Source: an uncultured Gammaproteobacteria bacterium
Lineage (GTDB): Bacteria > Patescibacteriota > Microgenomatia > CAZETR01 > Amesbacteraceae
Length of the DNA stretch: 64,000 nt
Direction: 5' to 3'
NCBI GenBank assembly: GCA_964518565.1
Contig: CAZFGX010000001.1
Span: 203,046-267,045 of the forward strand
The notes beneath the pieces are model-generated. The model was not told where the DNA came from, did no database searches, and saw nothing but the letters and a program-made list of their open reading frames with translations. The translations under genes were made by a program, and so were the position numbers. Numbering within the stretch: the first letter of the stretch is position 1; each line of letters opens with the position of its first letter. Of this stretch, positions 40,915 through 60,888 are shown in pieces.

Positions 40915-40944
40915 ACTTACGATGATACAATAATATGTATTGAT

Positions 40945-43504: not shown

Positions 43505-44517
43505 TAGTTAATCCGTATTGGGATTCATATGGAGGAGGAGAGAGATATACTGCAATGGTAATAAGGTATTTTTTGGACAAAGGCTATTGTGTAGATATTG
43601 TCTGGAATGCACCACTTTCAGATTCAATCAAAAATAAATTTAATATTGATATCTCGACTGCAAAAATTGTTAAACGAGACGTTTATACATCAAAGTACAA
43701 AATTGCGTTTTATGTTTCTGATGGATCTATTCCACTTTCCTTTGCTGAAAAAACTATTATTCACTTTCAATTCCCTTTTATAAATGTTTCGGGTAAAAAA
43801 GTTCTCAATAAATTAAAATCAGTTTTTTATAACTATGTTTGTAATTCACAATTCACAAAAACTAGAATTGACAAAGAATTTGGCATAAATAGTCGTGTAA
43901 TATATCCACCTATTGCCACCCAAGATTTCACTCCTGCAAAAAAAATAAATAATATTGTATATGTTGGACGTTTTTCACAACTGACACAAAAGAAAAATCA
44001 ACACCTACTGATAGAGGCGTTTAACAAATTTTCAAAAAACAATCCTACGTGGAGTATGACATTAGCTGGGGGATATGGTGTGGGTACTGATGAAAAATAT
44101 TTTGAACAAATAACAACAGAAGCCCAAAAAAACAAAAAAATTAAAATCCTAATTAATCCATCGTTCGTAGATATTAAAAACATATACGCTAAATCAACAA
44201 TATTTTGGTCTGCAACAGGTTTGGGTATTGACGAAGAAAAAAATCCGGAACAAGTTGAGCATTTTGGTATGAGCTTAGTAGAAGCGATGGCCGCTGGGTG
44301 TATACCTGTTGTAAGTAATAAAGGTGGACATGTCGAAATTGTTGGCGAACAAAATGTAAACCAACTAGTTAGCAATCAACACGAACTTGTTGAGAAAACG
44401 CAAAATATTATCCTAAACCAAAAATTATTAGTTGATTCATTGCAATATAGTATGGCAAGGGCAAAAGATTTTGATCTATCACATTTTTATCAAAATTGGG
44501 ATAAAATTTTTTCATGA
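43477..44517 (+). CDS. glycosyltransferase family 4 (GT-B)
   Basis: 'EHFGMSLVEAMAAGCIPVVSNKGG' E-x7-E motif. Confidence 0.65.
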   Translation: MGNAAKKVLIVNPYWDSYGGGERYTAMVIRYFLDKGYCVDIVWNAPLSDSIKNKFNIDISTAKIVKRDVYTSKYKIAFYVSDGSIPLSFAEKTIIHFQFPFINVSGKKVLNKLKSVFYNYVCNSQFTKTRIDKEFGINSRVIYPPIATQDFTPAKKINNIVYVGRFSQLTQKKNQHLLIEAFNKFSKNNPTWSMTLAGGYGVGTDEKYFEQITTEAQKNKKIKILINPSFVDIKNIYAKSTIFWSATGLGIDEEKNPEQVEHFGMSLVEAMAAGCIPVVSNKGGHVEIVGEQNVNQLVSNQHELVEKTQNIILNQKLLVDSLQYSMARAKDFDLSHFYQNWDKIFS

Positions 44518-45710
44518 AAAAAATTAGCAACTCCATAAAATTATTTTTTTGCGTTGGATTGGTTTTACGACTAATTAGTATGCCATTCACGTATCATCCT
44601 GATCTTCATGGACACTACCTCGGATCATGGTTGATGGTTAAAAAATCGGCATTATTAACCATGTACGACTACATTAGTCATCAACCAAGAAATAGTCAGA
44701 TAGTGAAAATATATGGGGATGATTTTTTCGTATATGGCCCAATGACATATTGGACACACGCAATTTGGCTTACATTGGTAAACCCAATTATTGATTGGAA
44801 TTTATTTAATAATTTTGAAACTAATTACGACATTGCAGAACAGTCATCTCAGTTGCCTTGGTTAATATTTATTCTAAAAACTCCCTATTTATTGGCAGAT
44901 ATCGGCTTATTAATATTGCTAATGAAAATAGCTCCAGAGTCCATGAAATCCAAAATTGTTTTATTGTGGGCATTCAATATTCCTATAATTCATTCGGCAT
45001 TTCTAATGGGTCAATTCGATATATTTATTGCTCTCGGGATACTCGCTGCGGTGTACGCATCCCAAAAAAATCATCCCTTTCTGGCTAGTGTATTTCTTGG
45101 AATTTCAGCTGCATTTAAACCGTTTCCGCTTTTTTTGTTGCCATTTGTACCAAAAACCTCATGGAAAAACGTTGTAATTGGAGTAGCAACATATTCAATA
45201 ATTATTTTGCCCTACATTCTTACATCACCCGGCTTTAGGATGTTTGCCCTTTCTGCTCAACAAAGCAGTAAACTCTGGGAAGCACATATTCCAGTATCAG
45301 CTACCCAATCAGTTGTCATATTTTTTGCATTATTAGGATTATTTGCCTGGATAAAAAAAGATCATCCAGAAAAAATGTCGCAAGTGGGTTGGTTTGCAGT
45401 TCCATTATTACTTTTTTATGGTTTGACCCATTTTCACCCACAATGGATTTCCTGGATTAGTCCAATATTGTTGCTCATCTACGCCCGTGAATCAAAATTG
45501 CGACTTGCTATATTGACCATATTGGGTTGTTGGATATTAATTACGTTGTCATTTGAACCTTCACTGCATACAGGTCTTTTTGGTTTCCCCATAAACCTTA
45601 AGCCGTACCTAAATGACCAGGCTGTATCATTTGTTAGGTCTATTCTAGCCGCAACCACTAGTTATTTTATTTATAACCTATTTATTCAAAATAAATCAGA
45701 AGTTACTTGA
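44514..45710 (+). CDS. polytopic membrane protein, GT-C-like (DUF2029/GT87-like)
   Basis: 398 aa, ~11 TM. Confidence 0.45.
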   Translation: MKKISNSIKLFFCVGLVLRLISMPFTYHPDLHGHYLGSWLMVKKSALLTMYDYISHQPRNSQIVKIYGDDFFVYGPMTYWTHAIWLTLVNPIIDWNLFNNFETNYDIAEQSSQLPWLIFILKTPYLLADIGLLILLMKIAPESMKSKIVLLWAFNIPIIHSAFLMGQFDIFIALGILAAVYASQKNHPFLASVFLGISAAFKPFPLFLLPFVPKTSWKNVVIGVATYSIIILPYILTSPGFRMFALSAQQSSKLWEAHIPVSATQSVVIFFALLGLFAWIKKDHPEKMSQVGWFAVPLLLFYGLTHFHPQWISWISPILLLIYARESKLRLAILTILGCWILITLSFEPSLHTGLFGFPINLKPYLNDQAVSFVRSILAATTSYFIYNLFIQNKSEVT

Positions 45711-46570
45711 AACAAGGCTTGTTTATAATAATTTCGTTGCTGAGGTTTTAAAATCATTCGTAAACTACATCCTAGAAGTATGGCAAATAATAAAAAGGGC
45801 TTGTGCCATCCAGGATTATGTTTTTCAAACCAATATTTCCAACCATTAATTTCGCCGATTACAGCAGGAGATCTATCTGAAGAACTTCCACCAAGTGCAT
45901 GTATACATTGGGCAATAGGTAAATACCATATTTGATATTTAGCCTTCTTGCAACGATATAGCCATTCTATTTCTTCGCCATACATGAAAAATTTTCCATC
46001 AAAACCTTCTGTTGTCAAAAATACTGATTTCCGTAAGAATAAAAACGCTCCTGTTACCCAGTCCGCTCGCTTTGGTGAATAATAACGTTGCGTGCTTCGT
46101 ATATGAATTGAATCAATGTATTCTCGTATCAAAGGCAAATTATCCAAAAAAAACATCATTTGAAATATTCGTCGTAATGTCGGGAAATATCCCCAAGAAG
46201 ATTGAATCGTGCCATCGGTATTTAATAATTGACAGCCAGCAATATCCACATCTTGGTGTGCGATAAAATATTCATAAAACAATTGAATCGTATCTTCAAA
46301 AACATAGGCATCGCTATTTAGTAAAAGTAATAAATCACCCTTAGCATTTCTCATCCCTTGGTTGTTCCCAAGTGCAAAACCAACATTGTCAGAGTTTTTA
46401 ATCAACTGAACTTGTGGAAAATCTTTTTGAATCATTTCTAGACTTCCATCCGTTGATGCGTTGTCGACAACAATAGTTTCAAATTCACCAAAAGTCGATC
46501 GATATAAGCACTCCAGGCATTTACGAGTTTTATCTAGGGTATTGAATGAAAGGATAATAACTGACAACAT
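45686..46570 (-). CDS. glycosyltransferase family 2
   Basis: 'LSVIILSFNTLDKT', 'VVDNASTDGS', 'LLLNSDAYV'. Confidence 0.7.
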   Translation of the reverse strand: MLSVIILSFNTLDKTRKCLECLYRSTFGEFETIVVDNASTDGSLEMIQKDFPQVQLIKNSDNVGFALGNNQGMRNAKGDLLLLLNSDAYVFEDTIQLFYEYFIAHQDVDIAGCQLLNTDGTIQSSWGYFPTLRRIFQMMFFLDNLPLIREYIDSIHIRSTQRYYSPKRADWVTGAFLFLRKSVFLTTEGFDGKFFMYGEEIEWLYRCKKAKYQIWYLPIAQCIHALGGSSSDRSPAVIGEINGWKYWFEKHNPGWHKPFLLFAILLGCSLRMILKPQQRNYYKQALFQVTSDLF

Positions 46571-46591: not shown

Positions 46592-48208
46592 ATGTCATTC
46601 ATATTGTTTTTGCTGCTAATAATCTCAAGTATAGTTCGTACAGTTGCCCCAACAGTTAGTCCACCAGAACTGTTTGGTGACGAGGTAGATGTGGGTTATC
46701 AGGCATACAGTCTTCTAAAAACTGGTAAAGATGTCAGAAATTACCCCGTACCCTTATATGTTCATTCACTATCAGAGTCTAGAGCTCCGTTGCTCATCTA
46801 TGCTACTGTTCCAAGTATTTTGATTTTTAAAAATACTATTGTGGGCGTTCGAGCTCCAGAATATATATTTGGCAGTTTGGCGCCAATAATTTCTGTCTGT
46901 TTGGCGTATAAGCTTACCCGATCCAAAAAAATAAGCCTTCTTACTGGTTTTTTTCTTGCCACATTACCATGGCACATTCATTATTCTAGATCTGCCTTTG
47001 AAGTAGTAATAATGCTCGATCTAATCATGGCAGGAACTACACTACTTTTGTCACAAAAAAGGATCCTCGGCGTCGTTCTCTTATTTTTATCAATGTATAC
47101 ATATAGCACTGCGGTGATATTCGCTCTTTGTTTATTTTTTGGTTTGTGGATATTGATTCCTAAAATACGCCACAAAACCACTTTTGTAGCTGCCTTGATA
47201 ATGTGCCTTCCTCTAATATTTAATCTCATTCAAGGATCGGCTAGTCAGCGTTTTAGTATACTGAGTATTTTTAATGAAAACGAGCAAATAAAAACTATCA
47301 CAGAACTTCGATCTGTCGATCTATCTGTTTGGGCTAAAATTTGGCATAACAAAGCTCAATCACTAGTCTATAAATTTTTGAGCAACTATTTTCAATCATT
47401 CTCCACTGATTTTCTCTTTGTAAGAGGTGATCCAACCCTGCGACATGGAATAGGTCAAATAGGAAATTTCTTATCTATTACCGCCCCTTTAATATTGATG
47501 GGTTTTGTGAGATTTTTGAAAAAAAGATTAATGATTCCAATCTTGTGGTTCATCTTGGCTCCTATTCCTGCCGCCCTCACGGTAGATGGGGGGTACCACG
47601 CCACTCGTTTATTTTTGCTCGTTTTCCCGCTAGTTTTAGCTATGGGACTAGGTGTGATCGAATGTATTCATTTTTTTAATAACAAAAAAATTTCTTATTC
47701 ACTATTAAGTCTTTTTGCAATAATTTTTTGCTACCAGTTTGGTTGGTATACACATTACTACTATGTACACTATCCTACTGCTTCTTGGCGCTGGTGGCAT
47801 GTAGGTTTTTCAAAAACGTTTACTGAAGTATCAAAAATTCAAGATCAATACACACGTGTTTTTATAAACAACACATATGAACCAGCGTTAATTAGATATT
47901 TGTTTTACTCTGAATATGATCCAAAAAGGTTTCACCAAACATTTTCAAACGATCAACCACAGACAAATATATTAAAAGGGTATGATGGCTTTACTCTTGA
48001 TAATAAAATATTTTTCGGTACATTCCACGACAAAGGTGGCGATATCCAAAACAAACTCAGCCCTCGAAGTCTATATATCCTTAGTCAGCGAGATGATGTT
48101 GGTGGCAACTGGGACTGGCGTAAATCCCCCCCAGCAGGGATCAAAGTAATCGATACCATTACAGATCCATACAATGACCCCATATTTTATTTAATAAAAA
48201 AAGAATAG
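46592..48208 (+). CDS. PMT/ArnT-like GT-C glycosyltransferase (DE-motif family)
   Basis: 'GDEVDVGYQAYSLLKTGKD', 12+ TM, C-terminal soluble domain. Confidence 0.55.
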   Translation: MSFILFLLLIISSIVRTVAPTVSPPELFGDEVDVGYQAYSLLKTGKDVRNYPVPLYVHSLSESRAPLLIYATVPSILIFKNTIVGVRAPEYIFGSLAPIISVCLAYKLTRSKKISLLTGFFLATLPWHIHYSRSAFEVVIMLDLIMAGTTLLLSQKRILGVVLLFLSMYTYSTAVIFALCLFFGLWILIPKIRHKTTFVAALIMCLPLIFNLIQGSASQRFSILSIFNENEQIKTITELRSVDLSVWAKIWHNKAQSLVYKFLSNYFQSFSTDFLFVRGDPTLRHGIGQIGNFLSITAPLILMGFVRFLKKRLMIPILWFILAPIPAALTVDGGYHATRLFLLVFPLVLAMGLGVIECIHFFNNKKISYSLLSLFAIIFCYQFGWYTHYYYVHYPTASWRWWHVGFSKTFTEVSKIQDQYTRVFINNTYEPALIRYLFYSEYDPKRFHQTFSNDQPQTNILKGYDGFTLDNKIFFGTFHDKGGDIQNKLSPRSLYILSQRDDVGGNWDWRKSPPAGIKVIDTITDPYNDPIFYLIKKE

Positions 48209-48211
48209 CTT

Positions 48212-49471
48212 ATGCAAATCGTAATCGTCTTATTAATTAGTTTATTATTACGAATTTTTGTTAGCACTGCTATATATAGCGGAGATCTAAACAACCATGT
48301 TGGTTGGGGAGAAAGTAATTTGAAATACGGCTATGAGGGAGCTTACGACAGACAATATGTTGGCATCATGCAACCCACCTATCCCCCCATAGCTATCGGA
48401 GCCTTTACTGCCTCAGTTGGTTTATATGAAACAGTATACAAAATCTCATACAGTCTAAACGAAAAAATAAATCTTTTCCCATCAAAAATTATCTGGTCAC
48501 TTCAGGATGAAAATGTACGACCTGCTTTTACGAAAATTATTGCGATTATTAGTGATGTCGGGGTCGGGCTCCTCATATATAGATTTTGCAAGTCAATATG
48601 TAAAAAAAGCCGAAAAACAAGCGTAATTGTCGCAGCAGCATATCTATTTAATCCAGCTGTTTGGTACATTAGTGCATTATGGGGACAAATTGAGTCATTA
48701 CCAATTTTTTTTATATTGCTTAGTATCTGGATGGCATATCAAAAAAAATACAAACTAGCCAATGTTAGCTTTGTCGCGGCAGTACTTTCAAAACAAACAT
48801 CTTTAATTTTTTCCCCATTATTTTTGATTCTTTCTTACAAAAAATTTGGAATAAAAAAGACTGTCAAAGGTCTGTTTATACAAATGGCAATATTTTATAT
48901 TGCATACCTTCCGTTTGCCCCCACACTGTCACCACTCTGGCCATTCCAAGTATATATAAATCGAATCCAAACAGGATCTGGCTCAGTCTGGATAACTGAT
49001 CATGCATTCAATGTCTGGATATGGTTTTCGCATTTACAAAAAATTCCTGATACCACAAAAGTAATTGGACAAATTTCAGCAAACATAGTTGGTATTGGAC
49101 TTTTTTTCATTGCGGTTTTAGCTCCATTGTTTGCTTATACAAAACGAAAACTCTCCTTTAACCAATTGATACTCCTATGTAGTCTCATGCCGATGGCGGC
49201 ATTTAGTTTTTTAACAAAAATGCATGAACGTTATAGTGCTCCAGCGATACCATTTATTGCTCTTGCTTCTTCATTTGATCCAGTTCTGTGGATTATATAT
49301 TTCCTTGAGTCAGTCGCTCATCTAGTTAACCTCTACCACGAATGGTACTTTCCTCGAATAGGGGGGGTAGACACACTTGTTTCAGATTGGACTACGATAC
49401 AAGTATGTGCAATCACCAATATCATCGTCACGCTTATTCTTATATGGAAAAATCTAAAACCCAAAGCATAA
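48212..49471 (+). CDS. polytopic membrane protein, GT-C-like
   Basis: 419 aa, ~11 TM. Confidence 0.45.
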   Translation: MQIVIVLLISLLLRIFVSTAIYSGDLNNHVGWGESNLKYGYEGAYDRQYVGIMQPTYPPIAIGAFTASVGLYETVYKISYSLNEKINLFPSKIIWSLQDENVRPAFTKIIAIISDVGVGLLIYRFCKSICKKSRKTSVIVAAAYLFNPAVWYISALWGQIESLPIFFILLSIWMAYQKKYKLANVSFVAAVLSKQTSLIFSPLFLILSYKKFGIKKTVKGLFIQMAIFYIAYLPFAPTLSPLWPFQVYINRIQTGSGSVWITDHAFNVWIWFSHLQKIPDTTKVIGQISANIVGIGLFFIAVLAPLFAYTKRKLSFNQLILLCSLMPMAAFSFLTKMHERYSAPAIPFIALASSFDPVLWIIYFLESVAHLVNLYHEWYFPRIGGVDTLVSDWTTIQVCAITNIIVTLILIWKNLKPKA

Positions 49472-50658
49472 ACCAAAAAAAAATTATCTGGACTTGTATT
49501 GGGCTTCGAATAATATTTGCGACCATTTTTTTTCACCCGGATATAAAAAGTCAGCATTTCCATGCTAGCTTGTTTGTAAAAAATAATCTAATCAATATCT
49601 ATGATTACCTAGAATTATCGCGAAACACATTACCATACTCCGATACGTTTAATTATCCGCCGCTCACATATTATTTTCTTGCATCATGGCAAAAAATCAT
49701 CACTACCGCCAGTCTACAAAACTGGCTTTGGGATTGGAGTGAATATGCTATTCAAAATAAAGATATCTACACACATTTATTGCTATTAAAATTACCCTAC
49801 CTCATTTTTGACTTACTATTAATTACGGTTTTGTTGACCCAAACAAAAAAAACTGCCGAAAAGAATGCGTTGATATATCTATGGGGATTTAATCCCATCA
49901 GTCTCTATGCGATATATATGATCGGTCAATTTGATATTTTGCCAGCATTGTTAACATGTTTGTCATACATATTAATGAAAAAATCCAAATATTTTTTGTC
50001 AGGTCTGTGTCTAGGCTTAGCGGCGGCCACCAAAACATATCCATTACTGTTAATACCTCTCTTTTTAGTTACGTATCGGTCAACAAAAGCTTCTGCCCAA
50101 TTGATAATTGGTGCTGTGATTGGTTGGCTGGGACCAAATATATATTTTTTAAATTCAATCGGATATCAACATAGTGTTCTACAATCTTCGTTGGCCGTCC
50201 GTTTATTTGCGGTTGGTATAAACATTAAAAATATTCACATCCCGTTATATCCAATATATTATCTCGCGATCTTGGCAGCAGCAATTCGAAAAAAGATAGA
50301 CGATGTAGTATTTTACTGTTTTTTGATTACTTTCTCACTCGTGGTGTTTACTGAATTTCATGCACAGTGGTTAGTATGGAGTTTGCCCTTTTCCCTTTTG
50401 GTATGTATTAAATATCCAAAAATAAAACTCTTACTTGTTGCCCAATATCTAATAGCAATGATCGTTGTTTTTCTCATACGTGATCAGTTTGTACTTATCG
50501 GACTATTTACTCCATTGAATCCTTATTTAGCTACCATTCCTCCGTTGTCATCATTTATACCGTCGGCTGAAAAAATACAAATAATTTTGCGTTTAATATT
50601 AGCGACAATCTCTATTTCTACGTTTATAAAATATCATCTCACCCCAAAAAATGTATAA
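49444..50658 (+). CDS. polytopic membrane protein, GT-C-like
   Basis: Internal ATG 49444 chosen (track 49342 extension has no hydrophobic start and overlaps upstream gene). Confidence 0.4.
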   Translation: MEKSKTQSINQKKIIWTCIGLRIIFATIFFHPDIKSQHFHASLFVKNNLINIYDYLELSRNTLPYSDTFNYPPLTYYFLASWQKIITTASLQNWLWDWSEYAIQNKDIYTHLLLLKLPYLIFDLLLITVLLTQTKKTAEKNALIYLWGFNPISLYAIYMIGQFDILPALLTCLSYILMKKSKYFLSGLCLGLAAATKTYPLLLIPLFLVTYRSTKASAQLIIGAVIGWLGPNIYFLNSIGYQHSVLQSSLAVRLFAVGINIKNIHIPLYPIYYLAILAAAIRKKIDDVVFYCFLITFSLVVFTEFHAQWLVWSLPFSLLVCIKYPKIKLLLVAQYLIAMIVVFLIRDQFVLIGLFTPLNPYLATIPPLSSFIPSAEKIQIILRLILATISISTFIKYHLTPKNV

Positions 50659-51298
50659 AGCTTTCTCTCTCATATTCATGTACTTGGCAATTATTTTAAT
50701 CTGTCTAGGAATTTTTTCATTATTTTTTGTTCGAAGAATCCAAGAATTCAACCAAGCAGTGGTTGACCGATTTGTTCCAATCACAAAAACTCATCCGGTT
50801 ACCCAAACTATTACTCCTCAGCATAATGGGTTAAATGTAATAGTAATTTTTTTAAAAAATGGTGGTATTAGAAATACAGAAGAATTTATATTTACAGTAT
50901 TAAATACAAAAAATGAGCCTATACGAAAAATTCTTTTATCAGGATCAAATATTGGCGATGGAGAAACAGTTCGATTTCAGTTTGATCCAATAGCAAACTC
51001 AGCTAATCAAATATTCAAGGTCAAGCTTGAAGCCCCAAAAACTGACTTTAGCCATCCATATATAGAAGCAGGATTTTCAAATACAGATACCTACAAACTT
51101 GGCCAATCTGAAGATATAAACACTCCAGGAGATCTATCGTTTCAAATTTATTATCATCCAAATAGTAAGTTGTCTATGGTATATGAAATTAGTCAGTTGA
51201 TAAGTCAAAAAATCTCTTTAAGACTCCTAGTCTCCAATCTAATAGTGATAGTTTCATGTGCAGTGACAATGAAATTGGTAAAATGGGATGATATATGA
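50651..51298 (+). CDS. membrane-anchored hypothetical protein
   Basis: N-terminal TM then beta-rich region. Confidence 0.35.
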   Translation: MYKAFSLIFMYLAIILICLGIFSLFFVRRIQEFNQAVVDRFVPITKTHPVTQTITPQHNGLNVIVIFLKNGGIRNTEEFIFTVLNTKNEPIRKILLSGSNIGDGETVRFQFDPIANSANQIFKVKLEAPKTDFSHPYIEAGFSNTDTYKLGQSEDINTPGDLSFQIYYHPNSKLSMVYEISQLISQKISLRLLVSNLIVIVSCAVTMKLVKWDDI

Positions 51299-52902
51299 AA
51301 TACCTACTGTTGGCAGTCGTTTTGGGAAGCATGCTAAGGCTAGTGTATATAACCCAACTCCCGAGTGGATTTACCCCAGATGAGGCTGCTTTTGGCTATA
51401 ATGCATATAGTCTTGGACAAACCGGTCGTGATGAATGGAGCACACCCTTTTGGCAGCTACCCCTAACCAATCTCAGATCATTTGGAGACTACAAGCTACC
51501 GTTGTATGCTTTTTTGGCAGTCCCCACCATAAAAATATTTGGTTTAAACGAATTTGCTACTCGTCTACCTAACTCAATAATCGGTATATTCTCTATTATT
51601 ACAACGGCTATATGTGCAAGCAAGCTATTCCCAACCAATAAGCGTATCATGCCTATTGCCTCATTTGCAGTCGCCCTATCACCGTGGTCTGTTCAACTAT
51701 CTCGTGGAGCATTTGAAGCAAATCTAGTTACCTGTTTTTTCCCTTTAGCCATTAGCCTATGGCTATCAAAAAAATCACTCCTTGCCGTATTGATGTTTGG
51801 AATAAATTTTTATTCGTATCACAGTGCAAGACTACTAACACCAATTTATTTTGCGTCTATATTTTTATATAAAAAGCCAGCCAACTGGATCAGAAGTATA
51901 ATTTTATTGGTGTGTTTAGTATTTCCAGGAATAATTGCACAATTTTTTTCAGCAAACACGCGTATTGCAGATGTTTCTATCATCTCACCTACAGACAAGT
52001 GGCAAGCCGTTAGTGATCGTCGATATGATAGTGTTGCTTTTGGAGAGCCAGACAAGCTTGCCAGATTTTTTTCAAACAAATTTACATACGTTGTATCTTT
52101 AGTAAAACACAACGTTATTCAGTACATTTCACCAGAATTTTTATTTACCAATGGTCCTGCGGAATCGACATATGGAATGATTCGTGGCAGGGGGGTCTTG
52201 TATGGCATAGAAGGAATTGGCCTAATCTCCTTCTTTGTTATGTTGTGTATAAAGCCAAATAAAACTCAGAGTTTTATTCTTGGCATGTTACTTATTTGTG
52301 CAGTACCCGCGGCATTAGCAAAAGGTCCAGGATATGCCGCCAATAGATCCGTCTCTATGCTTCCATTTTTTCTTATAGCCAGTTCATACGGTTTTTCAAT
52401 ACTAATAAAAAACATTCAAAAGTATAAAAAAATAGTAATTCTTACAGTTTTTATTACCTATACAATTGAATCACTTTTTTTCGTCGAAGATTATGTAATT
52501 CACAGCCCTCGTCAAACAGCAAGTAGTATGAATTACGGCTGGAAAGAAGCATTTGCTCGAACTGTACCAGCGATTGCTCGGTTATCTCATATATATATAG
52601 ATACTGCTCTCTCCGAACCTCATATATTTGCGGCCTTCTATTTAAAGATCCCGCCCCAAACATACCATCGTTATTCAAAATCTTGGACAGATTTCAATCA
52701 AAAGGGGATAAGGTTTTTAGATCAACTCGATGGATATCAATTAGAAAATATGACATTCGGACATGCCGACAAAGCAATCAACGATTCTAAATATCAACTA
52801 ATTATGGCAAAGACATCGGAAATATCTAATCAAGCAAATGAGCTATTCCGTATTAATTATCCGAATGGTCATCCGGCAATATCTGTAATTTCAAATGAAT
52901 AA
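51295..52902 (+). CDS. PMT/ArnT-like GT-C glycosyltransferase (DE-motif family)
   Basis: 'PDEAAFGYNAYSLGQTGRDEW', 'GDYKLPLY', 'GLNEFATRLPN'. Confidence 0.55.
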   Translation: MKYLLLAVVLGSMLRLVYITQLPSGFTPDEAAFGYNAYSLGQTGRDEWSTPFWQLPLTNLRSFGDYKLPLYAFLAVPTIKIFGLNEFATRLPNSIIGIFSIITTAICASKLFPTNKRIMPIASFAVALSPWSVQLSRGAFEANLVTCFFPLAISLWLSKKSLLAVLMFGINFYSYHSARLLTPIYFASIFLYKKPANWIRSIILLVCLVFPGIIAQFFSANTRIADVSIISPTDKWQAVSDRRYDSVAFGEPDKLARFFSNKFTYVVSLVKHNVIQYISPEFLFTNGPAESTYGMIRGRGVLYGIEGIGLISFFVMLCIKPNKTQSFILGMLLICAVPAALAKGPGYAANRSVSMLPFFLIASSYGFSILIKNIQKYKKIVILTVFITYTIESLFFVEDYVIHSPRQTASSMNYGWKEAFARTVPAIARLSHIYIDTALSEPHIFAAFYLKIPPQTYHRYSKSWTDFNQKGIRFLDQLDGYQLENMTFGHADKAINDSKYQLIMAKTSEISNQANELFRINYPNGHPAISVISNE

Positions 52903-54547
52903 AGCCCGACATCTAATTATCCTCCTACTAATTATCCTTCCGACAATTTCATCGCTGATGCGACCAGGTTTCTTTCCAATACAAGATAAAATGCAGCATT
53001 TTCGCATATACCAGATGTCTAAATGTTTTTCGGATTTGCAAATTCCATGCCACTGGGTACCAGATTTAGGTTACGGATATGGCTATCCATTATTTCTGTT
53101 TTATGCACCTGGACCGTTTTACATAGGTGCCTTAATGCATAGTGTAGGAGTTCAATATATTGATGTGGTGAAATTATTATTTGTAATAGGAGTTTTTAGT
53201 TCCAGTGTATGTATGTATCTTGCAGTAAAAAAAATCTTTAGTTCATCTTCGGCCGGTGTTATTGCTGCAACGTTGTACGCATACACTCCGATAAAAGCGT
53301 CTGAAATATATGTTCGTGGTTCGTTGAGTGAGTTTCTATCCTTTATTTTTTTTCCATTACTCTTTTGGTCATTAGTAAAAGATGAAAAAGCTACCCCTTC
53401 AATAAATTTCGCCTTTACATTATCTGTTGCAGCCCTCTTACTAACTCACAATCTCATGGCTTTTATATTTATTCCCATTGCATGTGTGTGGGCAATAGTA
53501 ATTTCTCGTTCAAAGCCTGGAGGTTATTTAACCAACCAAGCCATTTCACTTCTTTTAGGATTTGGCGTATCTAGTTTTTTTCTTTTGCCACTGCTTTTTG
53601 AAAAACAATTTATACACACAGAAAGTCTCACGAGTGGCTATTTCGGCTATCTTCAACATTTTGTATCGTTATATCAGCTCTTTATATCAAATCACTTTGG
53701 ATATGGATCATCTCAGCTTGGAATGGGAGATGATATCACTATTTCGTTAGGACATGTTAATTGGGTCTTAGGTTTGGTGGGAGTTATGCTAGCGTTGAAA
53801 AATTTTCGTGACCGATTGTCAAAAGCGGTGTTGGCAATAGCTGCTATCGTGTTAATGATAATTTTTCTGATGCATCAACGGTCTACCCCAATTTGGGAAA
53901 TTATTACTCCACTTCAGTTTTTACAATTCCCCTGGCGCTTGCTAGTAATTACTTCATTTTTATTATCACTAATTGCAGGCTACGTAGTTTCGAAAATCTA
54001 TAACAAAACAATAATGGCAGCAACGATATTGGTTATTTTTTTATTGTATGGCAATTTCTTTCAGCCCAAGAGCTGGGAGAACACTTCGGATAAAATAGAG
54101 TTTTCAGGTCAAAAATTTTTAGATCAAATGACAATAAGTATTTTTGATTACCTCCCGATATCAGCAAAATTTCCACCAAACAAAATTGCTCCGCCCGAAC
54201 CTGAAATTATTTTGGGAGATGCGTCTATTAGTTCTTACGAAAAAAAATCAGATTCTCAATCAGGTAAAATAGAAGTATTGTCTTCACAAGCCACAATTCG
54301 TGCTCCACTTTTTCAATTCCCTGGTATGCAAGCTCGTATTGATAATCAACCTGTACAAATACAAAGTAATTGCACAAACCAGCCATACTGTTTTGGTTTA
54401 ATAACCATTGACGTGCCTTATGGAGAGCATCAGATTGACTTCGTTTTAAAAAACACACCCATTAGATCGCTGGGCAACTTGATCAGTCTGAGTTCGTTAA
54501 TTTTTATCATTGGTGCCACATGTCGAAAAAAATATTTTTCACACTAA
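52895..54547 (+). CDS. membrane protein of CFSD-QIPC-WVPD-GYGYPLF family
   Basis: 'MSKCFSDLQIPCHWVPDLGYGYGYPLF', 'FPGMQARIDNQPV'. Confidence 0.45.
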   Translation: MNKARHLIILLLIILPTISSLMRPGFFPIQDKMQHFRIYQMSKCFSDLQIPCHWVPDLGYGYGYPLFLFYAPGPFYIGALMHSVGVQYIDVVKLLFVIGVFSSSVCMYLAVKKIFSSSSAGVIAATLYAYTPIKASEIYVRGSLSEFLSFIFFPLLFWSLVKDEKATPSINFAFTLSVAALLLTHNLMAFIFIPIACVWAIVISRSKPGGYLTNQAISLLLGFGVSSFFLLPLLFEKQFIHTESLTSGYFGYLQHFVSLYQLFISNHFGYGSSQLGMGDDITISLGHVNWVLGLVGVMLALKNFRDRLSKAVLAIAAIVLMIIFLMHQRSTPIWEIITPLQFLQFPWRLLVITSFLLSLIAGYVVSKIYNKTIMAATILVIFLLYGNFFQPKSWENTSDKIEFSGQKFLDQMTISIFDYLPISAKFPPNKIAPPEPEIILGDASISSYEKKSDSQSGKIEVLSSQATIRAPLFQFPGMQARIDNQPVQIQSNCTNQPYCFGLITIDVPYGEHQIDFVLKNTPIRSLGNLISLSSLIFIIGATCRKKYFSH

Positions 54548-56139
54548 TAATTTGCATTCTACCGTCTTGTATCGCTCTAATGCATTCAGGATATTATGGG
54601 GCTTCTGATGATTTGCATATTGGCTGGCTTCAACAAATGCATAAGACAGTTACTGCTGGATTTATACCACCCAGATATGTTCCTGACTTAAGCTATGGGT
54701 TTGGCTACCCCTTATTCAATTTTGTCTTTCCATTACCGTTTTATCTTGGAGAGATAGTACATGCATTTGGATTCACTCTTGTAGATAGTATTAAAGTTGT
54801 TTTCGCTCTTAGTATAATTCTTTCCGGCCTTTTCATGTATTGGTCCATGCGCAAGGTTTTTTCTAATGCTGCAAGTTTTATAGCTACTATTTTATATATT
54901 TATACGCCATACAGAGCAACAGAAATTTATATTAGAGGAGCTATTGGAGAAGCTTTTGCATTTGTTTTTTTCCCACTTATTGTTGGTGGGCTAATAGCTC
55001 TAGTCAAAAATAATACAAATAAAAATTTAGCAATAGTTGCAATAGGGGTAGGGTTATTAGTTTTAAGCCACAACATTAGTGCATACATGTTCATTCCTTT
55101 TGCAGTGCTATTAGGTATTATCCTGCAACCAAAAAAGCCTCAAACATGGATTTATCCATTACTTCTCGGTTCGACAATTAGTATGTATTTTTGGTTACCC
55201 GCACTCAGAGATAGTCGTTTGCTAGTCTACGACACCGTCTTTAATTATTGGGATCACTTTCCCACACTGAAACAATTATTGATTCCAAACTGGGGGTGGG
55301 GAGCATCAGTGCCTGGTCCATATGATGGTATGTCGTTTTTTATCGGTACGGTAAATTTGTGTGTTTTAATTATTTCAATACCGCTATTTTTCTTCCTAAA
55401 TAAAAAATTCAGCCAGATTCAATCAAAGATATTTATATGGGCAATATTAGCCTTTGTTGTAGCCTTTGTCTGTATGAATTTTCGTTCAGCAGTTTTTTGG
55501 GAGGTAGTGCCATTAATTAAATACTTTCAATTCCCTTGGCGATTTTTACTTGTAACCTCTTTTTGTTCATCGATAATTGCCGCATTGGTCGTCGAACATC
55601 TAAAACTTCCCAAATATATGGTCTTAATTCTTCCTTTGTTGCTAATTGGTACTGAAAGCTGGAAATTTAATCCACATGATTTTCTTGCAAGGCAGGACAA
55701 TTATTATCTTAATAGATATATTCCATACCCTTTTGCAAGTTATGAATATACTCAAACCAGTGAGGAATATTTACGTCTTCCAAAAAACACTCAAATACGA
55801 CCAAATAAAATATTTCCAAGATTTTATTCTGACAATATCCAAATAAATCAGTTAGATATAGAAAATGATTTCTCTGCTTCGGTAAACATTACTTCACCTG
55901 AAAACGGATCAATAAATTACAACAAATATGCATTTCCTGGGTGGAAAGCTAAATTAGATGGAGAGATGGTAAGAATCAATCCTGGGGAACCATTTGGCCA
56001 AATAAATATTTCCATACCTGCTGGTACACACAATCTTCACGTCTTTTACGAAGAGCCTAAACAAAACTGGCCATTAGACATCATGTCTGCTATGGCATTA
56101 ATATATACTATTTTTAGATTGATATATGCAAAAAAATAA
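54520..56139 (+). CDS. membrane protein of the same family (tandem paralog)
   Basis: 'YVPDLSYGFGYPLFNFVFPLPFYLG', 'FPGWKAKLDGEMV'. Confidence 0.45.
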   Translation: MSKKIFFTLIICILPSCIALMHSGYYGASDDLHIGWLQQMHKTVTAGFIPPRYVPDLSYGFGYPLFNFVFPLPFYLGEIVHAFGFTLVDSIKVVFALSIILSGLFMYWSMRKVFSNAASFIATILYIYTPYRATEIYIRGAIGEAFAFVFFPLIVGGLIALVKNNTNKNLAIVAIGVGLLVLSHNISAYMFIPFAVLLGIILQPKKPQTWIYPLLLGSTISMYFWLPALRDSRLLVYDTVFNYWDHFPTLKQLLIPNWGWGASVPGPYDGMSFFIGTVNLCVLIISIPLFFFLNKKFSQIQSKIFIWAILAFVVAFVCMNFRSAVFWEVVPLIKYFQFPWRFLLVTSFCSSIIAALVVEHLKLPKYMVLILPLLLIGTESWKFNPHDFLARQDNYYLNRYIPYPFASYEYTQTSEEYLRLPKNTQIRPNKIFPRFYSDNIQINQLDIENDFSASVNITSPENGSINYNKYAFPGWKAKLDGEMVRINPGEPFGQINISIPAGTHNLHVFYEEPKQNWPLDIMSAMALIYTIFRLIYAKK

Positions 56140-57682
56140 GCTGGTTATATTAATAAGTTTTTTAATCATATGTGTGAGTCGAATTATATATATATCCCAG
56201 TTTCCGCCTAGCTTAAATTGGGATGAAGTCAGTTTAGGATACAACTCATATTCAGTACTAAAAACCGGTAAAGACGAGTGGGGCGTAGTACTACCAACAA
56301 TATTTCGAGCATTTGGCGATTATAAATTACCAGTTTATATTTATAGCCTAACTCCAGCAATCGCAATTTGGGGGTTAAATGAATTCACTGTTCGATTGCC
56401 ATCGATAATCTCAGGACTTTGTTCGTTGATTGTAATTTATATTTTGGCAAGGAAAATTTTTCCACAAAAAAAATACTTCGCATGGTTGGCATTAATTACA
56501 TATGCATTTTCGCCTTGGAGTTGGTTTTTATCTCGAATCGCTCTGGAAGCCAATGTAGCGTTAGCCTTTACATTACTAGGGATTGCGTGTCTACTTTTTC
56601 GTCGATTTTCTTCATCAGCTTTACTTCTTGGTTTGTCTGTCTGGACTTACAATGCAAATAGAATTTTTATTCCACTGCTCATTTTATTTTATTTCTATAA
56701 AAATTTTTCAGATATCCCACGCAAAAGTTTAACAATAATAGTATTGATTCTAGGTCTTATGTTTTTGCAAATTGCTACTGCTACTGGGCAAGCAAGATTT
56801 AGATGGACCACTATTTTGGACGAAGGAGCAATCGCTAAAATTAATGAGCAATCACTTGAATTTGGTGGAAGAATTCTCCATAACAAAGGAACCTATATTT
56901 TAGTCGAATTTACAAAAAATTATATAAGTCACTTCACGCCAAATTTCTTATTCATAAAAGGTGGAAACCAGTATCAATTTAGTGTGCAAAATATTGGAGT
57001 ACTAAATATTGCTGCCTTACCATTTTTCTATTTTGGATTGATTAGATTAATCAGGTACAAATCAAAATATAAATATCTTCTTTTGGTATGGGTTTTTTTA
57101 TCACCAATCCCCGCCAGTATTACTAGAGATGCGCCTCATGTACTGCGTTCGTTAGCATTATTACCTGTTTCAATTTTCATATCCATTATTGGATTAGATA
57201 TCATAATCAAAAAGTACAACAAGATAATATACTTTTACGTATTGATTTTAGTTATTTTTACAAGTGTTTATATAAATAAACTGCAAACATATAGGACAAA
57301 ATATTCATGGGCATGGCAATTTGGATACAAACAATTAGCTGAAAAGATATTTTTTGAATATCAAAATTTTGACCAAATTATTATTACAAAAAGATATGGT
57401 GAACCTCATGAATTTATTTTGTTTTATACTCAATATGATCCGGAAAAATTTCAATCAGATGAGAATCTAAATAGGTATTCGAAATCAGACTGGTTTTGGG
57501 TTGATGGGTTCGATAAGTTCAGATTTGTAAATGATTGGGAAATATCAGCCTTAGTTGCAAATTTACCACACGACAAAAAATATTTAATTGTTTCCAGCCC
57601 AGAATCACCAACAATTGGTTCTGGTATGTCCAATATTGAATTTCTAGATGGAAGCACAGCCTTTAATTTAAAACAATTATGA
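56126..57682 (+). CDS. PMT/ArnT-like GT-C glycosyltransferase (DE-motif family, tandem copy 1)
   Basis: 'NWDEVSLGYNSYSVLKTGKDEWG', 'GDYKLPVY', 'GLNEFTVRLPS'. Confidence 0.55.
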   Translation: MQKNKLVILISFLIICVSRIIYISQFPPSLNWDEVSLGYNSYSVLKTGKDEWGVVLPTIFRAFGDYKLPVYIYSLTPAIAIWGLNEFTVRLPSIISGLCSLIVIYILARKIFPQKKYFAWLALITYAFSPWSWFLSRIALEANVALAFTLLGIACLLFRRFSSSALLLGLSVWTYNANRIFIPLLILFYFYKNFSDIPRKSLTIIVLILGLMFLQIATATGQARFRWTTILDEGAIAKINEQSLEFGGRILHNKGTYILVEFTKNYISHFTPNFLFIKGGNQYQFSVQNIGVLNIAALPFFYFGLIRLIRYKSKYKYLLLVWVFLSPIPASITRDAPHVLRSLALLPVSIFISIIGLDIIIKKYNKIIYFYVLILVIFTSVYINKLQTYRTKYSWAWQFGYKQLAEKIFFEYQNFDQIIITKRYGEPHEFILFYTQYDPEKFQSDENLNRYSKSDWFWVDGFDKFRFVNDWEISALVANLPHDKKYLIVSSPESPTIGSGMSNIEFLDGSTAFNLKQL

Positions 57683-59277
57683 AAAAAAATCTGATTATAT
57701 TATTTGGTATTACTATTGTTGGATTTTTACTCCGATCCATATGTATCTCAACATTGCCACAAACGTTTACCTGGGATGAAGCTGCTTTGGGATACAACGC
57801 ATATTCAGTTCTAAAAACAGGTAGAGATGAACATGGTGTATTGTTTCCAATAGTCTTTAAGTCGTTTGGCGATTTTAAACCTGGTTTATATATCTATTTT
57901 TCAGTTTTGCCTATCCATTTGTTTGGATTAAATGAGTTCTCTACTCGGATTATTTCATCAATATTTGGTTCACTCTCAATTTTGGGAATTTTTAGTTTGA
58001 CATACATCATTACCAAAAACATGCGTTCTGCTTTGTATTCATCAATTACGCTAACTATCATGCCCTGGGCTATTCAATTTTCTCGTGCAGCTTGGGAATC
58101 TAACATTTGTGTTAGTCTAACACTTTTCGCCTCAACACTTTTCATAAGAAAAAAATATTTTGCTTCAAGCATATTATTTGGTTTAACATTCTGGACATAT
58201 CAAAGTGCAAAATTATTCACTCCAATTATTCTTTTTACACTAATTATTCTAAACAAAAAAAATATCACTACAAAAAACATAATAAAAATATGCACACCCG
58301 CTCTTTTATTATTAATTCCTATACTTCTTGGTTTATCTGTACAGTCTGGTAGATTGAAAGTATTTAGCGTTTTTTCCTACTCAAGACAACTGGATTTTGT
58401 GAACACTTTAGCCCAGCAAGATGGTACAAACATACAAAATATTTTTTTTAATATATTTCATGCTGAAATAATTGACCAGCTTAGGGGTGTAGAACAAAGA
58501 TATTTAAACTATTTTTCGCCCAAGTTTTTATTTTTTTCAGGAGATTGGTCAAATTCTCGGCATGCTACATTATATTATGGATATCTTCATATCGTGGATT
58601 TAATACCGTTACTTTTAGGTATTTATATACTGACAAGGTCAACATACAAGTATAAAAAATTTATTGCCGTATGGTTGTTTGCAACACCACTATTGGGTAG
58701 TCTCTCTAGAGATCTAATCTCTGGCGTTAGATCTTTATCCCTCATTGTTCCATTGGCTTTCATTATTGGAATAGGTCTCGAAAAATTATTACAAAAAAAA
58801 TTTTTTACAACTGTATACATTCTTTCTGTGATCTATCTATCTGTCTATTTTATTGACTTATATAGTATTCATACTACATATAAGGCGAATGATGAATCGC
58901 TTGTATCTTATAAGCCCGCAGTTGAGTCAATGTTGAAATATCAAGAAAAATATCGTCACGTCATCTTTTCTGACAAACTTGGACAGCCATATATATATAT
59001 TCTTTTTTATTCAAAAACAGATCCTAGAGTTTACCAAAAAGACCACATATTTGAAGATGGGGCAAATGGTGATGTGGGTAGGGTGGTTTCTATGTCGAAA
59101 TATTCATTTCGAAAAATTTACTGGCCTCAAGACCGAGGTGAAAGTGATACCCTATTCATAGGTGATGAGTTTGAGCTACCAGAGACGGATCTACAAACTG
59201 TAAACGGTATCCAAAGGTTAGACGAGATTTATTATCCAGATAGAAGATTGTCGTTTCATATTGTGGGGTTGCCATAA
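57679..59277 (+). CDS. PMT/ArnT-like GT-C glycosyltransferase (tandem copy 2)
   Basis: 'TWDEAALGYNAYSVLKTGRDEHG', 'GDFKPGLY', 'GLNEFSTRI'. Confidence 0.55.
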   Translation: MKKNLIILFGITIVGFLLRSICISTLPQTFTWDEAALGYNAYSVLKTGRDEHGVLFPIVFKSFGDFKPGLYIYFSVLPIHLFGLNEFSTRIISSIFGSLSILGIFSLTYIITKNMRSALYSSITLTIMPWAIQFSRAAWESNICVSLTLFASTLFIRKKYFASSILFGLTFWTYQSAKLFTPIILFTLIILNKKNITTKNIIKICTPALLLLIPILLGLSVQSGRLKVFSVFSYSRQLDFVNTLAQQDGTNIQNIFFNIFHAEIIDQLRGVEQRYLNYFSPKFLFFSGDWSNSRHATLYYGYLHIVDLIPLLLGIYILTRSTYKYKKFIAVWLFATPLLGSLSRDLISGVRSLSLIVPLAFIIGIGLEKLLQKKFFTTVYILSVIYLSVYFIDLYSIHTTYKANDESLVSYKPAVESMLKYQEKYRHVIFSDKLGQPYIYILFYSKTDPRVYQKDHIFEDGANGDVGRVVSMSKYSFRKIYWPQDRGESDTLFIGDEFELPETDLQTVNGIQRLDEIYYPDRRLSFHIVGLP

Positions 59278-60887
59278 TGTCAAAAAAAATTCTACTTATA
59301 TTCATACTCCTTGTCGCGACGATTTTGCGTCTAGTACAAATTACAAACTTTCCAGCCGGACTAAATGCTGATGAGGCAGCGCTGGGCTACAATGCATATT
59401 CTTTAATGAAAACAGGTAGAGACGAACACGGACATCCGTGGCCTGTCAATTTAGAGTCGTTTGGGGATTTTAAACCTGCAGGATACACATATATTCTTAT
59501 CCCATTTATTAAATTGTTTGGGTTAAATGAGTTTTCAGTACGACTTCCATCAGCAATTTTTGGCATTTTAGCAGTGTATTTGGTTTACAAATTAGCTAAG
59601 TCTACGGTAGGATCTGAGCATTTTATTGCCGCTGTTTTAGCATTTTCACCTTGGCATATTCAGTTTTCGCGCGGTGGTTGGGAAGTAAATGTCGCCAGCA
59701 CATTAATTTTACTAGCAGTTTATCAATTTACATTATGGCTTGAGTCAAAATCCTATCGATATCTATGTGTTTCATTTTTTTCACTAATATTTTCGATGTA
59801 TGTATACCAATCAGCAAGAATTCTCGCTCCGTTATTCGGTCTAGCACTAATTATACTAAATATGTATGTTGTAAAAAAACAGTTGAAACAATTTTTTCTA
59901 GTATGCATTCTATCTCTAGTACTGATCGCGCCGCTTGCCTATTCAATAGTTTCATCAAATGCCGCCTCTAGATTTTCTGGTGTTGGTTTTACAGCAGATA
60001 TGGGGCCTTTAAACAGAATAAATGAGTTACGAGGCCAACATCTCAACCAAAACGGTTTTATTTCTAAAATGCTTCATAACAAACCAATTGCGTATGGTTT
60101 CCAATTCATCTCAAATTATTTAGACCATTTTAATGGAAACTTCCTTTTCGTAAACGGCGATGTCATACATAGAAATAAAACTCCCGAAACAGGTCTATTA
60201 TATTTCACTGATATTGTTTTCGTTATCATAGGGACAATATTTTTAATCAAAAGTAAAAATAAAAGCAAAAATATTGTATGGGTCTGGTTATTTTTTAGTC
60301 CAATACCAGCTGCCTTAACCTTCCAGACCCCCCATGCATTGCGTGCGCAAAACATGGTGATACCACTAAGTTTTCTTGTAGGGTTAGGAATATACGCTAC
60401 AATAAAGTCATTCGGTAAATATAAATATTTTGTCACTGCTTGCATCTGTTGTGTCTATGCATGGCAAGTTGCCAGATTTATTCATGAATATACAGTGCAC
60501 TATCCAAAAACCTACCCTGATGCTTGGGAATACGGATTCAAACAAATAACCAGTGAGATAAAAGCACATGGTGATCAATATCAAAAAATTATTGTCACTG
60601 ATATTTATGATCAACCGTATATTTTAATATTATTTTATCTCAAATACGATCCAGAACTATTCCAAAAAAATCATCAACTTACTCCAAGAGACAAATTCAA
60701 TTTTTCCACTGTAACATCCTTCGATAAATTTTCATTCGAAAAAATTGACTGGGAGAAGATCAAAAACTCTAAAAACACATTATTGATAGGAAGAAAAGAT
60801 GAAATTCCAGATATAAAGTTGGATAATGTAATAACAATACCCGATCCAGACGGAAATCCGGGTTTTAAAATCGTACAACTTCCTTAA
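59277..60887 (+). CDS. PMT/ArnT-like GT-C glycosyltransferase (tandem copy 3)
   Basis: 'NADEAALGYNAYSLMKTGRDEHG', 'GDFKPAGY', 'GLNEFSVRLPS'; TAATG coupling. Confidence 0.55.
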   Translation: MSKKILLIFILLVATILRLVQITNFPAGLNADEAALGYNAYSLMKTGRDEHGHPWPVNLESFGDFKPAGYTYILIPFIKLFGLNEFSVRLPSAIFGILAVYLVYKLAKSTVGSEHFIAAVLAFSPWHIQFSRGGWEVNVASTLILLAVYQFTLWLESKSYRYLCVSFFSLIFSMYVYQSARILAPLFGLALIILNMYVVKKQLKQFFLVCILSLVLIAPLAYSIVSSNAASRFSGVGFTADMGPLNRINELRGQHLNQNGFISKMLHNKPIAYGFQFISNYLDHFNGNFLFVNGDVIHRNKTPETGLLYFTDIVFVIIGTIFLIKSKNKSKNIVWVWLFFSPIPAALTFQTPHALRAQNMVIPLSFLVGLGIYATIKSFGKYKYFVTACICCVYAWQVARFIHEYTVHYPKTYPDAWEYGFKQITSEIKAHGDQYQKIIVTDIYDQPYILILFYLKYDPELFQKNHQLTPRDKFNFSTVTSFDKFSFEKIDWEKIKNSKNTLLIGRKDEIPDIKLDNVITIPDPDGNPGFKIVQLP

Positions 60888-60888
60888 T

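Follow-up and report, generated by a model that had tools for sequence, protein, structure and literature searches.

An ancient array of five GT-C class A paralogs in a Microgenomates genome, with a probable role in the assembly of an envelope glycan

The 64-kb stretch of DNA analysed here (hereafter, the window) covers positions 203,046 to 267,045 of contig CAZFGX010000001.1, from an uncultured bacterium assigned by GTDB to the Amesbacteraceae (assembly GCA_964518565.1). Five of its open reading frames (ORFs), starting at 46592, 51295, 56126, 57679 and 59277 on the + strand and here named A, B, C, D and E, code for predicted membrane glycosyltransferases of the GT-C class. We propose that A-E represent five ancient and non-redundant subfamilies of a single, uncharacterised branch of GT-C class A, acting in one conserved envelope-glycan pathway, and we assign to this proposal a probability of about 0.6.

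The interval under study, which ends at position 60887, holds ten + strand ORFs, five of which are A-E. All five were found in the ORF list at the starts given by an earlier reading made from the sequence alone (the original prediction), and the starts of A-D (46592, 51295, 56126 and 57679) were reproduced by an independent gene call, covering these four genes, on an identical public contig. The last three copies lie back-to-back as predicted, C and D overlapping by 4 nt and D and E by 1 nt. The genes, which are located in a window of low G+C content (31-43%), are full-length and intact, and code for proteins of 518-538 amino acids. BLASTP comparisons showed them to be paralogs, with 24-34% identity over 83-100% of their length (E = 1e-31 to 1e-89), and their five-way alignment contains 37 invariant columns. 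Each protein is a singleton upon clustering at 90% identity, the NCBI contig that encodes them being 1,001,365 bp long; one database protein, P0001, is 100% identical to paralog A.

Relatives of A-E are numerous. A word-indexed protein search returned 922 of them among 8,000 scored candidates, the named ones belonging to Candidatus Amesbacteria and Daviesbacteria and being labelled "hypothetical", "ArnT-like" or "GT39". It should be noted that only A, among A-E, was present in the matches listed for this search, even though B-E are cluster representatives for which about 700 bits would be expected; this is probably an effect of the word pre-filter, which is set at 8000 candidates. When 1.84 billion cluster representatives were searched, 7,630 (50%-identity clusters) were retrieved at E <= 1e-30, and 18,528 at E <= 1e-10. 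Finally, a motif scan using one genome per species confirmed at least 580 stretches, and 77 loci were kept; the locus counts reported below cover these listed loci. Where the record title was informative, the loci came from Ames-, Shapiro-, Woese-, Collier- or Daviesbacteria, or from the Microgenomates/Patescibacteria group, and almost all of them contained 3 to 8 family genes.

The comparison of orthologs with paralogs bears on the age of the array. While A-E share only 24-34% identity with one another, their orthologs in dozens of genomes of other Microgenomates are 35-58% identical to them, the best values being 51% for A, 49% for B, 47% for C, 49% for D and 58% for E. In a neighbour-joining analysis, 319 of the 334 family sequences fell into five clades, one for each window protein: A (86 sequences, 67 loci), B (60 sequences, 54 loci), C (62 sequences, 61 loci), D (65 sequences) and E (46 sequences), with 45-67 loci represented in each clade. 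Mean identity is 0.35-0.48 within the clades and 0.26-0.33 between them, and in 191-200 out of 200 column bootstraps the ten sequences nearest to a given window paralog were all members of its own clade.

Gene order is conserved as well. Collinearity with the window was observed in 48 of the 53 loci containing at least three types, and the complete order A-B-C-D-E, with all five types, in 30 of the 77 loci (loci with extra copies included). In 17 of these 30 loci the block spans 8.1-8.4 kb, with the genes directly back-to-back. The window block is longer (14.3 kb), five genes for other membrane proteins being intercalated, and relatives of some of these genes hold the same positions in Amesbacteria-type loci. 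The synteny extends to the whole cluster, including Wzx, GT2, GT4, GT87 and other GT-C genes. The array is therefore of the fixed-order, tandem type exemplified by embCAB, and because orthologs are closer than paralogs, five clades are resolved and the order is kept, the duplications are ancient, preceding the divergence of these candidate phyla, with the array maintained ever since.

For the same reasons, the suggestion that the genes arose by a lineage-specific tandem expansion is not supported at the level of the organism, given that the A-B-C-D-E order recurs across Ames-, Shapiro-, Woese-, Collier- and Daviesbacteria; as far as sampled genomes go, the expansion would be specific only to the Microgenomates group. 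A recent, organism-specific expansion, leading to variable surface glycosylation and hence to a combinatorial code or to diversity for evading phages or hosts, would account for the variation from 3 to 8 copies per locus and for the extra A or D genes of some lineages, and surface glycans often come under diversifying selection. Nevertheless, it appears very improbable, considering that the paralogs are more distant from one another than from their orthologs in other candidate phyla, that the clades are stable and the order conserved, and that in the window each of the five proteins is of full length and keeps its site intact. The ratio dN/dS between tandem copies is uninformative in this respect, because at the identities reported above, for paralogs and orthologs alike, synonymous sites are saturated; nor could strain-level variation be used, because the only other assembly retrieved for this genome is 100% identical over 21.6 kb.

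Two observations on the listed loci may be added. An arrangement designated 'c a D A', in which two copies are inverted and neither B nor E occurs within the 21 kb covered, was seen in five loci (L016, L027, L029, L034 and L075), which are from Shapirobacteria where the record title is informative; other loci have an extra copy of A or D, or as many as 8 family genes (L039, L010), so that neither copy number nor order is constant throughout. In addition, many genome records titled 'uncultured Gammaproteobacteria/Pseudomonadales bacterium' (L002, L003, L007, L009, L018, L058, L062, L072 and others, from isolates designated ERP119705_co..., binchicken_co... and SRP..._co...) contain Amesbacteria-like A-B-C-D-E loci with 45-58% identity to the window, so that this taxonomic label looks like a placeholder or an error.

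The motif DE..GY..YS...TG.D is carried by all of A-E, and when the window was scanned in all six frames for [DE][DE]xxx[GA][YF]xx[YFW], exactly five sites were returned, one per paralog, a confinement that is not due to chance. The other two motifs that had been described as common to the five proteins, GD[YF]K and GLNEF, are shared by only four: B-E read sFGD[YF]K(L/P) and FGLNEFxxR, while at the corresponding places paralog A reads SLSESRAP and FKNTIVGVR. Throughout the A clade, S.sewRaP is found instead of sFGDYKP, that is, Glu/Arg for Asp/Lys, a change which is conservative and is itself conserved. No paralog was found to lack the predicted catalytic Asp/Glu, the pair being present in all five proteins and at least 97% conserved within every clade.

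When the 334 family sequences were typed, 19 positions turned out to be at least 80% conserved in each of the five clades, namely (E numbering) R18, D32, E33, G37, Y38, S42, D49, G52, R89, P125, S131, R132, E136, Y177, R232, Y281, G294, R356 and P459. The window proteins deviate from them only in A, which has Asn for G52, and in B, which has Ser for G52 and Val for Y281. Since the DE pair and the conserved site positions are kept in all of them, A-E are probably all active enzymes. Agreement between clades is highest in the N-terminal catalytic module (0.76-0.88), lower in the long external loop (0.62) and lowest in the C-terminal soluble domain (0.56), which is the pattern expected from, and weakly suggests, differing acceptor specificities.

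The fold was modelled with AlphaFold2 from family alignments for E (predicted local distance difference test, pLDDT, 95.3; predicted TM-score, pTM, 0.94) and for A, the most divergent copy (pLDDT 92.9, pTM 0.91). A Foldseek comparison of the E model with the PDB gave STT3A (4e-8) and ArnT (4.5e-8), the latter with the best TM-score of all (0.56-0.57), followed by AglB, PglB, ALG9, ALG12, Pmt4, Pmt1/2, Emb, AftD and DPY19, the top matches being all GT-C enzymes. The A model matched STT3A (2e-6), AglB, ArnT (1e-5), PglB and ALG12, and also Pmt chains. Foldseek probability was 1.00 to STT3A, ArnT, AglB, PglB, Pmt4, ALG9/12, DPY19 and Emb. Both models display the GT-C class A fold, and on this basis A-E are assigned to that class (ArnT/PMT/STT3/PglB type), directly for the modelled A and E and, for B-D, through their alignment over 83-100% of the length. 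Topology was read from DSSP analysis of the models, because a Kyte-Doolittle estimate was too noisy. It places the D-E pair at the N-terminus of the first helix after the first transmembrane helix (TM1), i.e. in the first external loop, and shows the C-terminus to be a soluble alpha/beta domain of about 120 amino acids.

Pfam profiles recognise the family weakly. Paralog E scores 43.3 bits against Pfam PMT_2 (PF13231), above the cut-off of 26.1 bits, with D (25.0), C (20.8) and B (17.9) below it; E also reaches 22.3 bits over residues 11-119 against PMT (PF02366), whose cut-off is 22.7. One or the other of these two families is precomputed on many homologs. In an NCBIfam scan, E gave a sub-threshold match to TIGR03663 (40.4 bits against a cut-off of 126.25), and A-D gave no match. 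A profile built on 55 family sequences matches ArnT of Cupriavidus metallidurans (5ezm) with E = 8e-5. This alignment pairs the Lys of GD[YF]K with chain index 88 (K85 of ArnT) and the invariant Glu of the A-E family (E136 of E, which lies in a W/F-E-x-N motif) with index 161 (D158), the offset of 73 residues being equal to the K85-D158 spacing in ArnT. The family thus has residues of the K85/D158 type, the A clade carrying Glu/Arg at the first site. In ArnT, K85 contacts the phosphate of the lipid carrier and D158 the sugar or acceptor, while D55/E56 of ArnT and D77/E78 of Pmt1 form the loop-1 active site (PMC7801869).

Motif order and spacing also match between E. coli ArnT and paralog E: the DE pair (PDE 30-32 in ArnT, DE 32-33 in E) is followed by G(x)D (GD 46-47; G47 and D49), by an acidic-x-Lys-Pro motif (FEKP 59-62; DFKP 64-67) and by FGxNxFxVR (FGANNFGVR 76-84; FGLNEFSVR 81-89), with equal distances from Lys to FG (16) and from Lys to Arg (23). 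The equivalence of the DE pair with the catalytic pair of ArnT and PMT would rest on this position and spacing, on the sub-threshold Pfam PMT match and on the modelled fold. Overall, the original prediction, that these are GT-C enzymes of the PMT/ArnT kind bearing a DE site in the first loop, is supported by the fold, by the ArnT profile match, by the Pfam PMT_2/PMT matches and by the conservation of the pair.

Among characterised enzymes, A-E most resemble ArnT (GT83, undecaprenyl-phosphate-L-Ara4N:lipid A transferase; 5ezm/5f15), which shares with them the class A fold, the loop motif order DE...G(x)D...[ED]xKP..GY...FGxNxFxVR, a size of about 540 amino acids and a small C-terminal external domain, and is the only solved structure reached by the family sequence profile. 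However, identity is only about 10%, K203 of ArnT aligns with an invariant Tyr of the A-E family, and ArnT is encoded by a single gene as opposed to five conserved paralogs. ArnT acts on lipid A together with the arn pathway (ArnA/B/C/D/E/F), and genes similar to arnA, arnB and arnD were not found among the scanned ORFs of the window. Cells of the candidate phyla radiation (CPR) are regarded as having no lipid A, and the acceptor must therefore differ from that of ArnT. Functionally, A-E are not ArnT.

The protein O-mannosyltransferases (PMTs; GT39, i.e. Pmt1/2/4 and bacterial PMT) offer a second comparison, and with it the alternative that A-E are PMT-like protein O-glycosyltransferases, each subfamily or heterodimer serving different secreted or sortase-anchored proteins. 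The hallmark of PMTs is a DE pair where external loop 1 begins, and their family likewise splits into subfamilies which differ in substrate and are able to act as heterodimers. The Pfam PMT/PMT_2 matches of E and of many homologs, together with the Foldseek matches to Pmt4 and Pmt1/2, fit this alternative. So does the presence in the window of a sortase and of secreted proteins with Pro/Thr/Ser-rich linkers (10788, 17918 and 20753), which are typical O-mannosylation targets. In addition, the best NCBIfam match of two GT2 proteins of the window is PgfS ('glycosyltransferase PgfS'), part of a streptococcal protein-glycosylation system. On the other hand, MIR and PMT_4TMC domains were absent from all five proteins in a Pfam scan (E <= 0.01), Foldseek E-values to PMTs are weaker than those to ArnT, which is the closest solved relative by both sequence and TM-score, and the structural alignments to PMTs are mostly partial, although that to Chaetomium Pmt4 (9i5k) attains a TMq of 0.50. 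Furthermore, a Wzx flippase and many GT2/GT4 genes, such as those of the cluster, are typical of oligo- or polysaccharide assembly, and the candidate protein substrates are encoded at least 25 kb away. We consider this alternative unlikely.

Thirteen genes on the same strand, from 46592 to 63826, are spaced by only -28 to +3 nt, which indicates an operon with translational coupling (Table 1). The operon is defined without promoters or terminators, because consensus matches to such elements were not above those of shuffled sequences in the window. The intercalated pair between B and C belongs, together with ORF 35640-37295, to a second family of three paralogs with 29-37% mutual identity, which matches Pfam PTPS_related (PF10131) and, weakly, STT3; one homolog of this family sits between B and C in the Amesbacteria-type loci.

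Table 1. Paralogs A-E and other genes of the window discussed in the text.
Feature	Coordinates	Strand	Remarks
Paralog A	46592..48208	+	538 aa; D30/E31 codons 46679-46684; SESRAP replaces GD[YF]K
Paralog B	51295..52902	+	535 aa; D29/E30 from 51379
Paralog C	56126..57682	+	518 aa; D33/E34 from 56222
Paralog D	57679..59277	+	532 aa; D33/E34 from 57775
Paralog E	59277..60887	+	536 aa; D32/E33 from 59370
Polytopic protein, weak PIG-U/ALG6-ALG8-like (GT-C) matches	48212..49471	+	Homolog beside A in 40 related loci
GT87-family membrane glycosyltransferase	49444..50658	+	Gene-call start 49444; maximal ORF from 49342
215-aa protein	50651..51298	+	One N-terminal hydrophobic segment; no family match; kept in 7 related loci
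PTPS_related/STT3-like polytopic pair	52895-54547, 54520-56139	+	Between B and C
GT2	60889-61665	+	Syntenic in 42 related loci
GT4	61662-62723	+	Syntenic in 35 related loci
Polytopic membrane protein	62720-63826	+	Syntenic in 16 related loci
Wzx/MOP flippase	37274		First gene of the upstream cluster part, 37274..46570
627-aa polytopic protein	38709		Upstream cluster part
GT2 (three genes)	40945, 41850, 42752		Upstream cluster part
GT4	43477		Upstream cluster part
GT87	44514		Upstream cluster part
GT2	45686-46570	-	Upstream cluster part
GT2 fused to GtrA/DPMS transmembrane domain	26033..27169	+	Candidate polyprenyl-phosphate-sugar synthase
GT2 fused to PMT_2 GT-C domain	28301-30484	+	Candidate synthase and transferase in one polypeptide
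Two GT-C genes related to 28301	30481, 31862	+	After 28301-30484
GT2, polyprenyl-phosphate-sugar synthase type	33321-34148	+	

The strict co-conservation, collinearity and translational coupling of the five genes could also be accounted for by a single hetero-oligomeric membrane machine, in which some of the subunits (e.g. A) would be scaffolds or acceptor-binding components rather than catalysts. Precedents exist among the structural matches, in the Pmt1-Pmt2 and EmbA-EmbB heterodimers, and A is altered in the second and third motifs, its loss of GLNEF being noted for this genome. However, the 19 positions, which include the DE pair, the Ser-Arg pair, the D158-type Glu and three arginines, are kept in all five clades, and the replacement of Asp/Lys by Glu/Arg in A is conservative and conserved. 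A machine with such non-catalytic subunits seems improbable.

The components that would supply a donor to A-E are encoded upstream. Three GT2 proteins (26033, 28301 and 33321) are of the type that makes polyprenyl-phosphate-sugars; their best NCBIfam matches are PgfS, ArnC, Dol-P-hexose transferase, PpgS and AglJ, all far below the equivalog cut-offs (for ArnC, 46-74 bits against a cut-off of 529). ORF 26033-27169 has a flippase-like module built in, and adjoins trmD (25350-26003, - strand). As for the GT-C enzymes, the original prediction had singled out five ORFs, which do all belong to GT-C but are not the only ones in the window: Pfam matches or paralogy point to at least 11 more (2906, 28301, 30481, 31862, 34135, 35640, 44514, 48212, 49342, 52895 and 54520), for a total of 16 ORFs with GT-C-type evidence in 64 kb, an unusually high density. 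Five polytopic ORFs are without family match (1333, 4545, 27141 on the - strand, 38709 and 62720), and a relaxed Pfam scan (E <= 5) of these and of 31862 and 52895 gave nothing useful.

A GT-A lipid-sugar synthase, a flippase and a GT-C enzyme constitute the multi-component transmembrane glycosylation systems which modify cell-wall polymers in Gram-positive bacteria (PMC8035078). All three component types of the CsbB/GtcA/YfhO, GtlA/GtcA/GtlB and GacI/J/K/L systems are also encoded in the window (the GT2s 26033, 28301 and 33321, a GtrA domain or the Wzx protein 37274, and the GT-Cs), in a monoderm-type envelope context that includes a sortase, and these synthases, flippases and GT-Cs are presumably coupled functionally. 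In contrast to those systems, which use one GT-C enzyme and one synthase per modification, the window has five ordered paralogs and at least 11 further ORFs with GT-C-type evidence, and its synthase-type GT2s are not adjacent to A-E, lying 12-20 kb upstream. In addition, A-E share no sequence family with YfhO, GtlB or GacL.

A possible mechanism can be outlined from these data. A polyprenyl-phosphate-sugar would be made in the cytoplasm by a GT2/DPMS-type synthase (candidates are 26033, 33321 and the N-terminal domain of 28301), and a flippase of GtrA or Wzx type would then move it across the membrane. At the outer face, each of A-E would take a single sugar from such a donor and attach it to an acceptor located outside the cytoplasm. 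The Asp-Glu pair that opens the first external helix would serve the acceptor side of the reaction, and the lipid phosphate would be held by conserved arginines together with the Lys/Arg of (D/E)x(K/R)P. The five enzymes would thus catalyse five steps, differing in linkage, sugar or acceptor position, in the assembly or decoration of one conserved envelope glycoconjugate. Five different steps are the most likely, because five genes are kept in order inside a syntenic Wzx/GT2/GT4/GT87/GT-C cluster. The multiple acceptor or donor specificities put forward by the original prediction are plausible, considering that the subfamilies diverge most in the external loop and C-terminal domain and that three candidate lipid-sugar synthases are present. 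However, because the gene set is fixed and conserved, a fixed pathway is more likely than the combinatorial code that had also been suggested.

Several points weigh against our proposal. The five-gene set is not universal, as shown by the lineages with the 'c a D A' arrangement or with extra A or D copies. Only E exceeds the gathering score of Pfam PMT_2, and A had no Pfam match even in the relaxed scan (E <= 5). The DE pair could not be brought into significant sequence alignment with D55/E56 of ArnT or D77/E78 of PMT: the HMMER and hhalign local alignments to ArnT begin after the pair, those obtained against E. coli ArnT (hhalign, hmmsearch) cover only the region TM2-TM7, and pairwise Smith-Waterman alignments of the N-termini gave z values of just 0.9-3.3. 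Likewise, no match to PDB sequences was obtained either with a family profile limited to the N-terminal part or with E alone in phmmer. The donor, the acceptor and even the activity are predicted for every member, and the conserved order would also fit a hetero-oligomeric complex or a set of five enzymes that glycosylate proteins independently.

Other genes of the window may bear on the cell surface. ORF 10788-15218 codes for a secreted protein of 1476 amino acids with a glucose/sorbosone-dehydrogenase beta-propeller, a PKD domain and six PA14 domains with PTPTPTP linkers between them, possibly a glycan-binding surface protein and a substrate of O-glycosylation. Three Asn/Ser/Thr-rich secreted proteins (19503-20747, 20753-22912 and 22960-23562, - strand) contain a degenerate 'N(T/S)GG..(I/V).TGDA' repeat and gave no Pfam match; 20753 starts with a Pro/Thr/Ser-rich tract, and a sortase (17386-17895) and a CAP-domain protein (23641) are encoded nearby. 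A processive GT2 similar to cellulose synthase (6598), an HlyD-like protein (8104) and a protein with a GH81 C-terminal domain (8889) are encoded in a row (6598-10787), and suggest a separate module for the synthesis and turnover of a beta-glucan.

Serial extracytoplasmic extension, as proposed for A-E, is also the logic of the mycobacterial lipomannan/lipoarabinomannan (LAM)/arabinogalactan series (PimE/GT87, Mpt, Aft, Emb). There, embC-embA-embB are paralogous GT-C genes kept in tandem order and acting on distinct acceptors, and GT87 enzymes are found in the window cluster too (44514 and 49342). The relation of A-E to these enzymes is at the level of the superfamily: Foldseek matches to EmbA/B/C, AftA, AftD and PimE are weaker (E = 1e-3 to 1e-2), and the Emb/Aft proteins are about twice the size of A-E and have carbohydrate-binding C-terminal domains. 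A similar serial action of GT-C enzymes is known for the ALG enzymes of the endoplasmic reticulum (ER) lumen. More speculatively, A-B-C-D-E and the associated Wzx/GT2/GT4/GT87 proteins could constitute a glycan assembly line that defines the Microgenomates, possibly a single hetero-oligomeric machine, producing an unrecognised surface glycopolymer. We regard this broader idea as tentative; if true, bacteria would have in this assembly line an equivalent of the ER-lumenal ALG series or of the mycobacterial synthesis of LAM, and the ultra-small, host-dependent cells would need its product for envelope integrity or for attachment to the host.

The enzymology suggested here is not new, in that fold, motifs and three-component logic all have known precedents. 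Within the literature searched, however, we found no paper describing the A-E array or an expansion of GT-C enzymes in CPR bacteria. CPR bacteria of the Microgenomates group have genomes of about 1 Mb and are generally described as metabolically very limited. Against this background, the conservation of a block of five GT-C genes, in a window with 16 ORFs of GT-C-type evidence, stands out, and such conservation in a reduced genome suggests that the glycan product matters for the cell surface, which in these uncultivated lineages is the interface with hosts and phages. The protein families enriched in Microgenomates, 35 in number, were described as mostly hypothetical, 14 of them being membrane proteins (Méheust et al., 2019; PMC6744442). 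The family of A-E, as delineated here, is large and essentially unannotated, with most members below the Pfam thresholds, and has five conserved subfamilies, which, with their site residues, offer targets for annotation, heterologous assays and glycan analysis.

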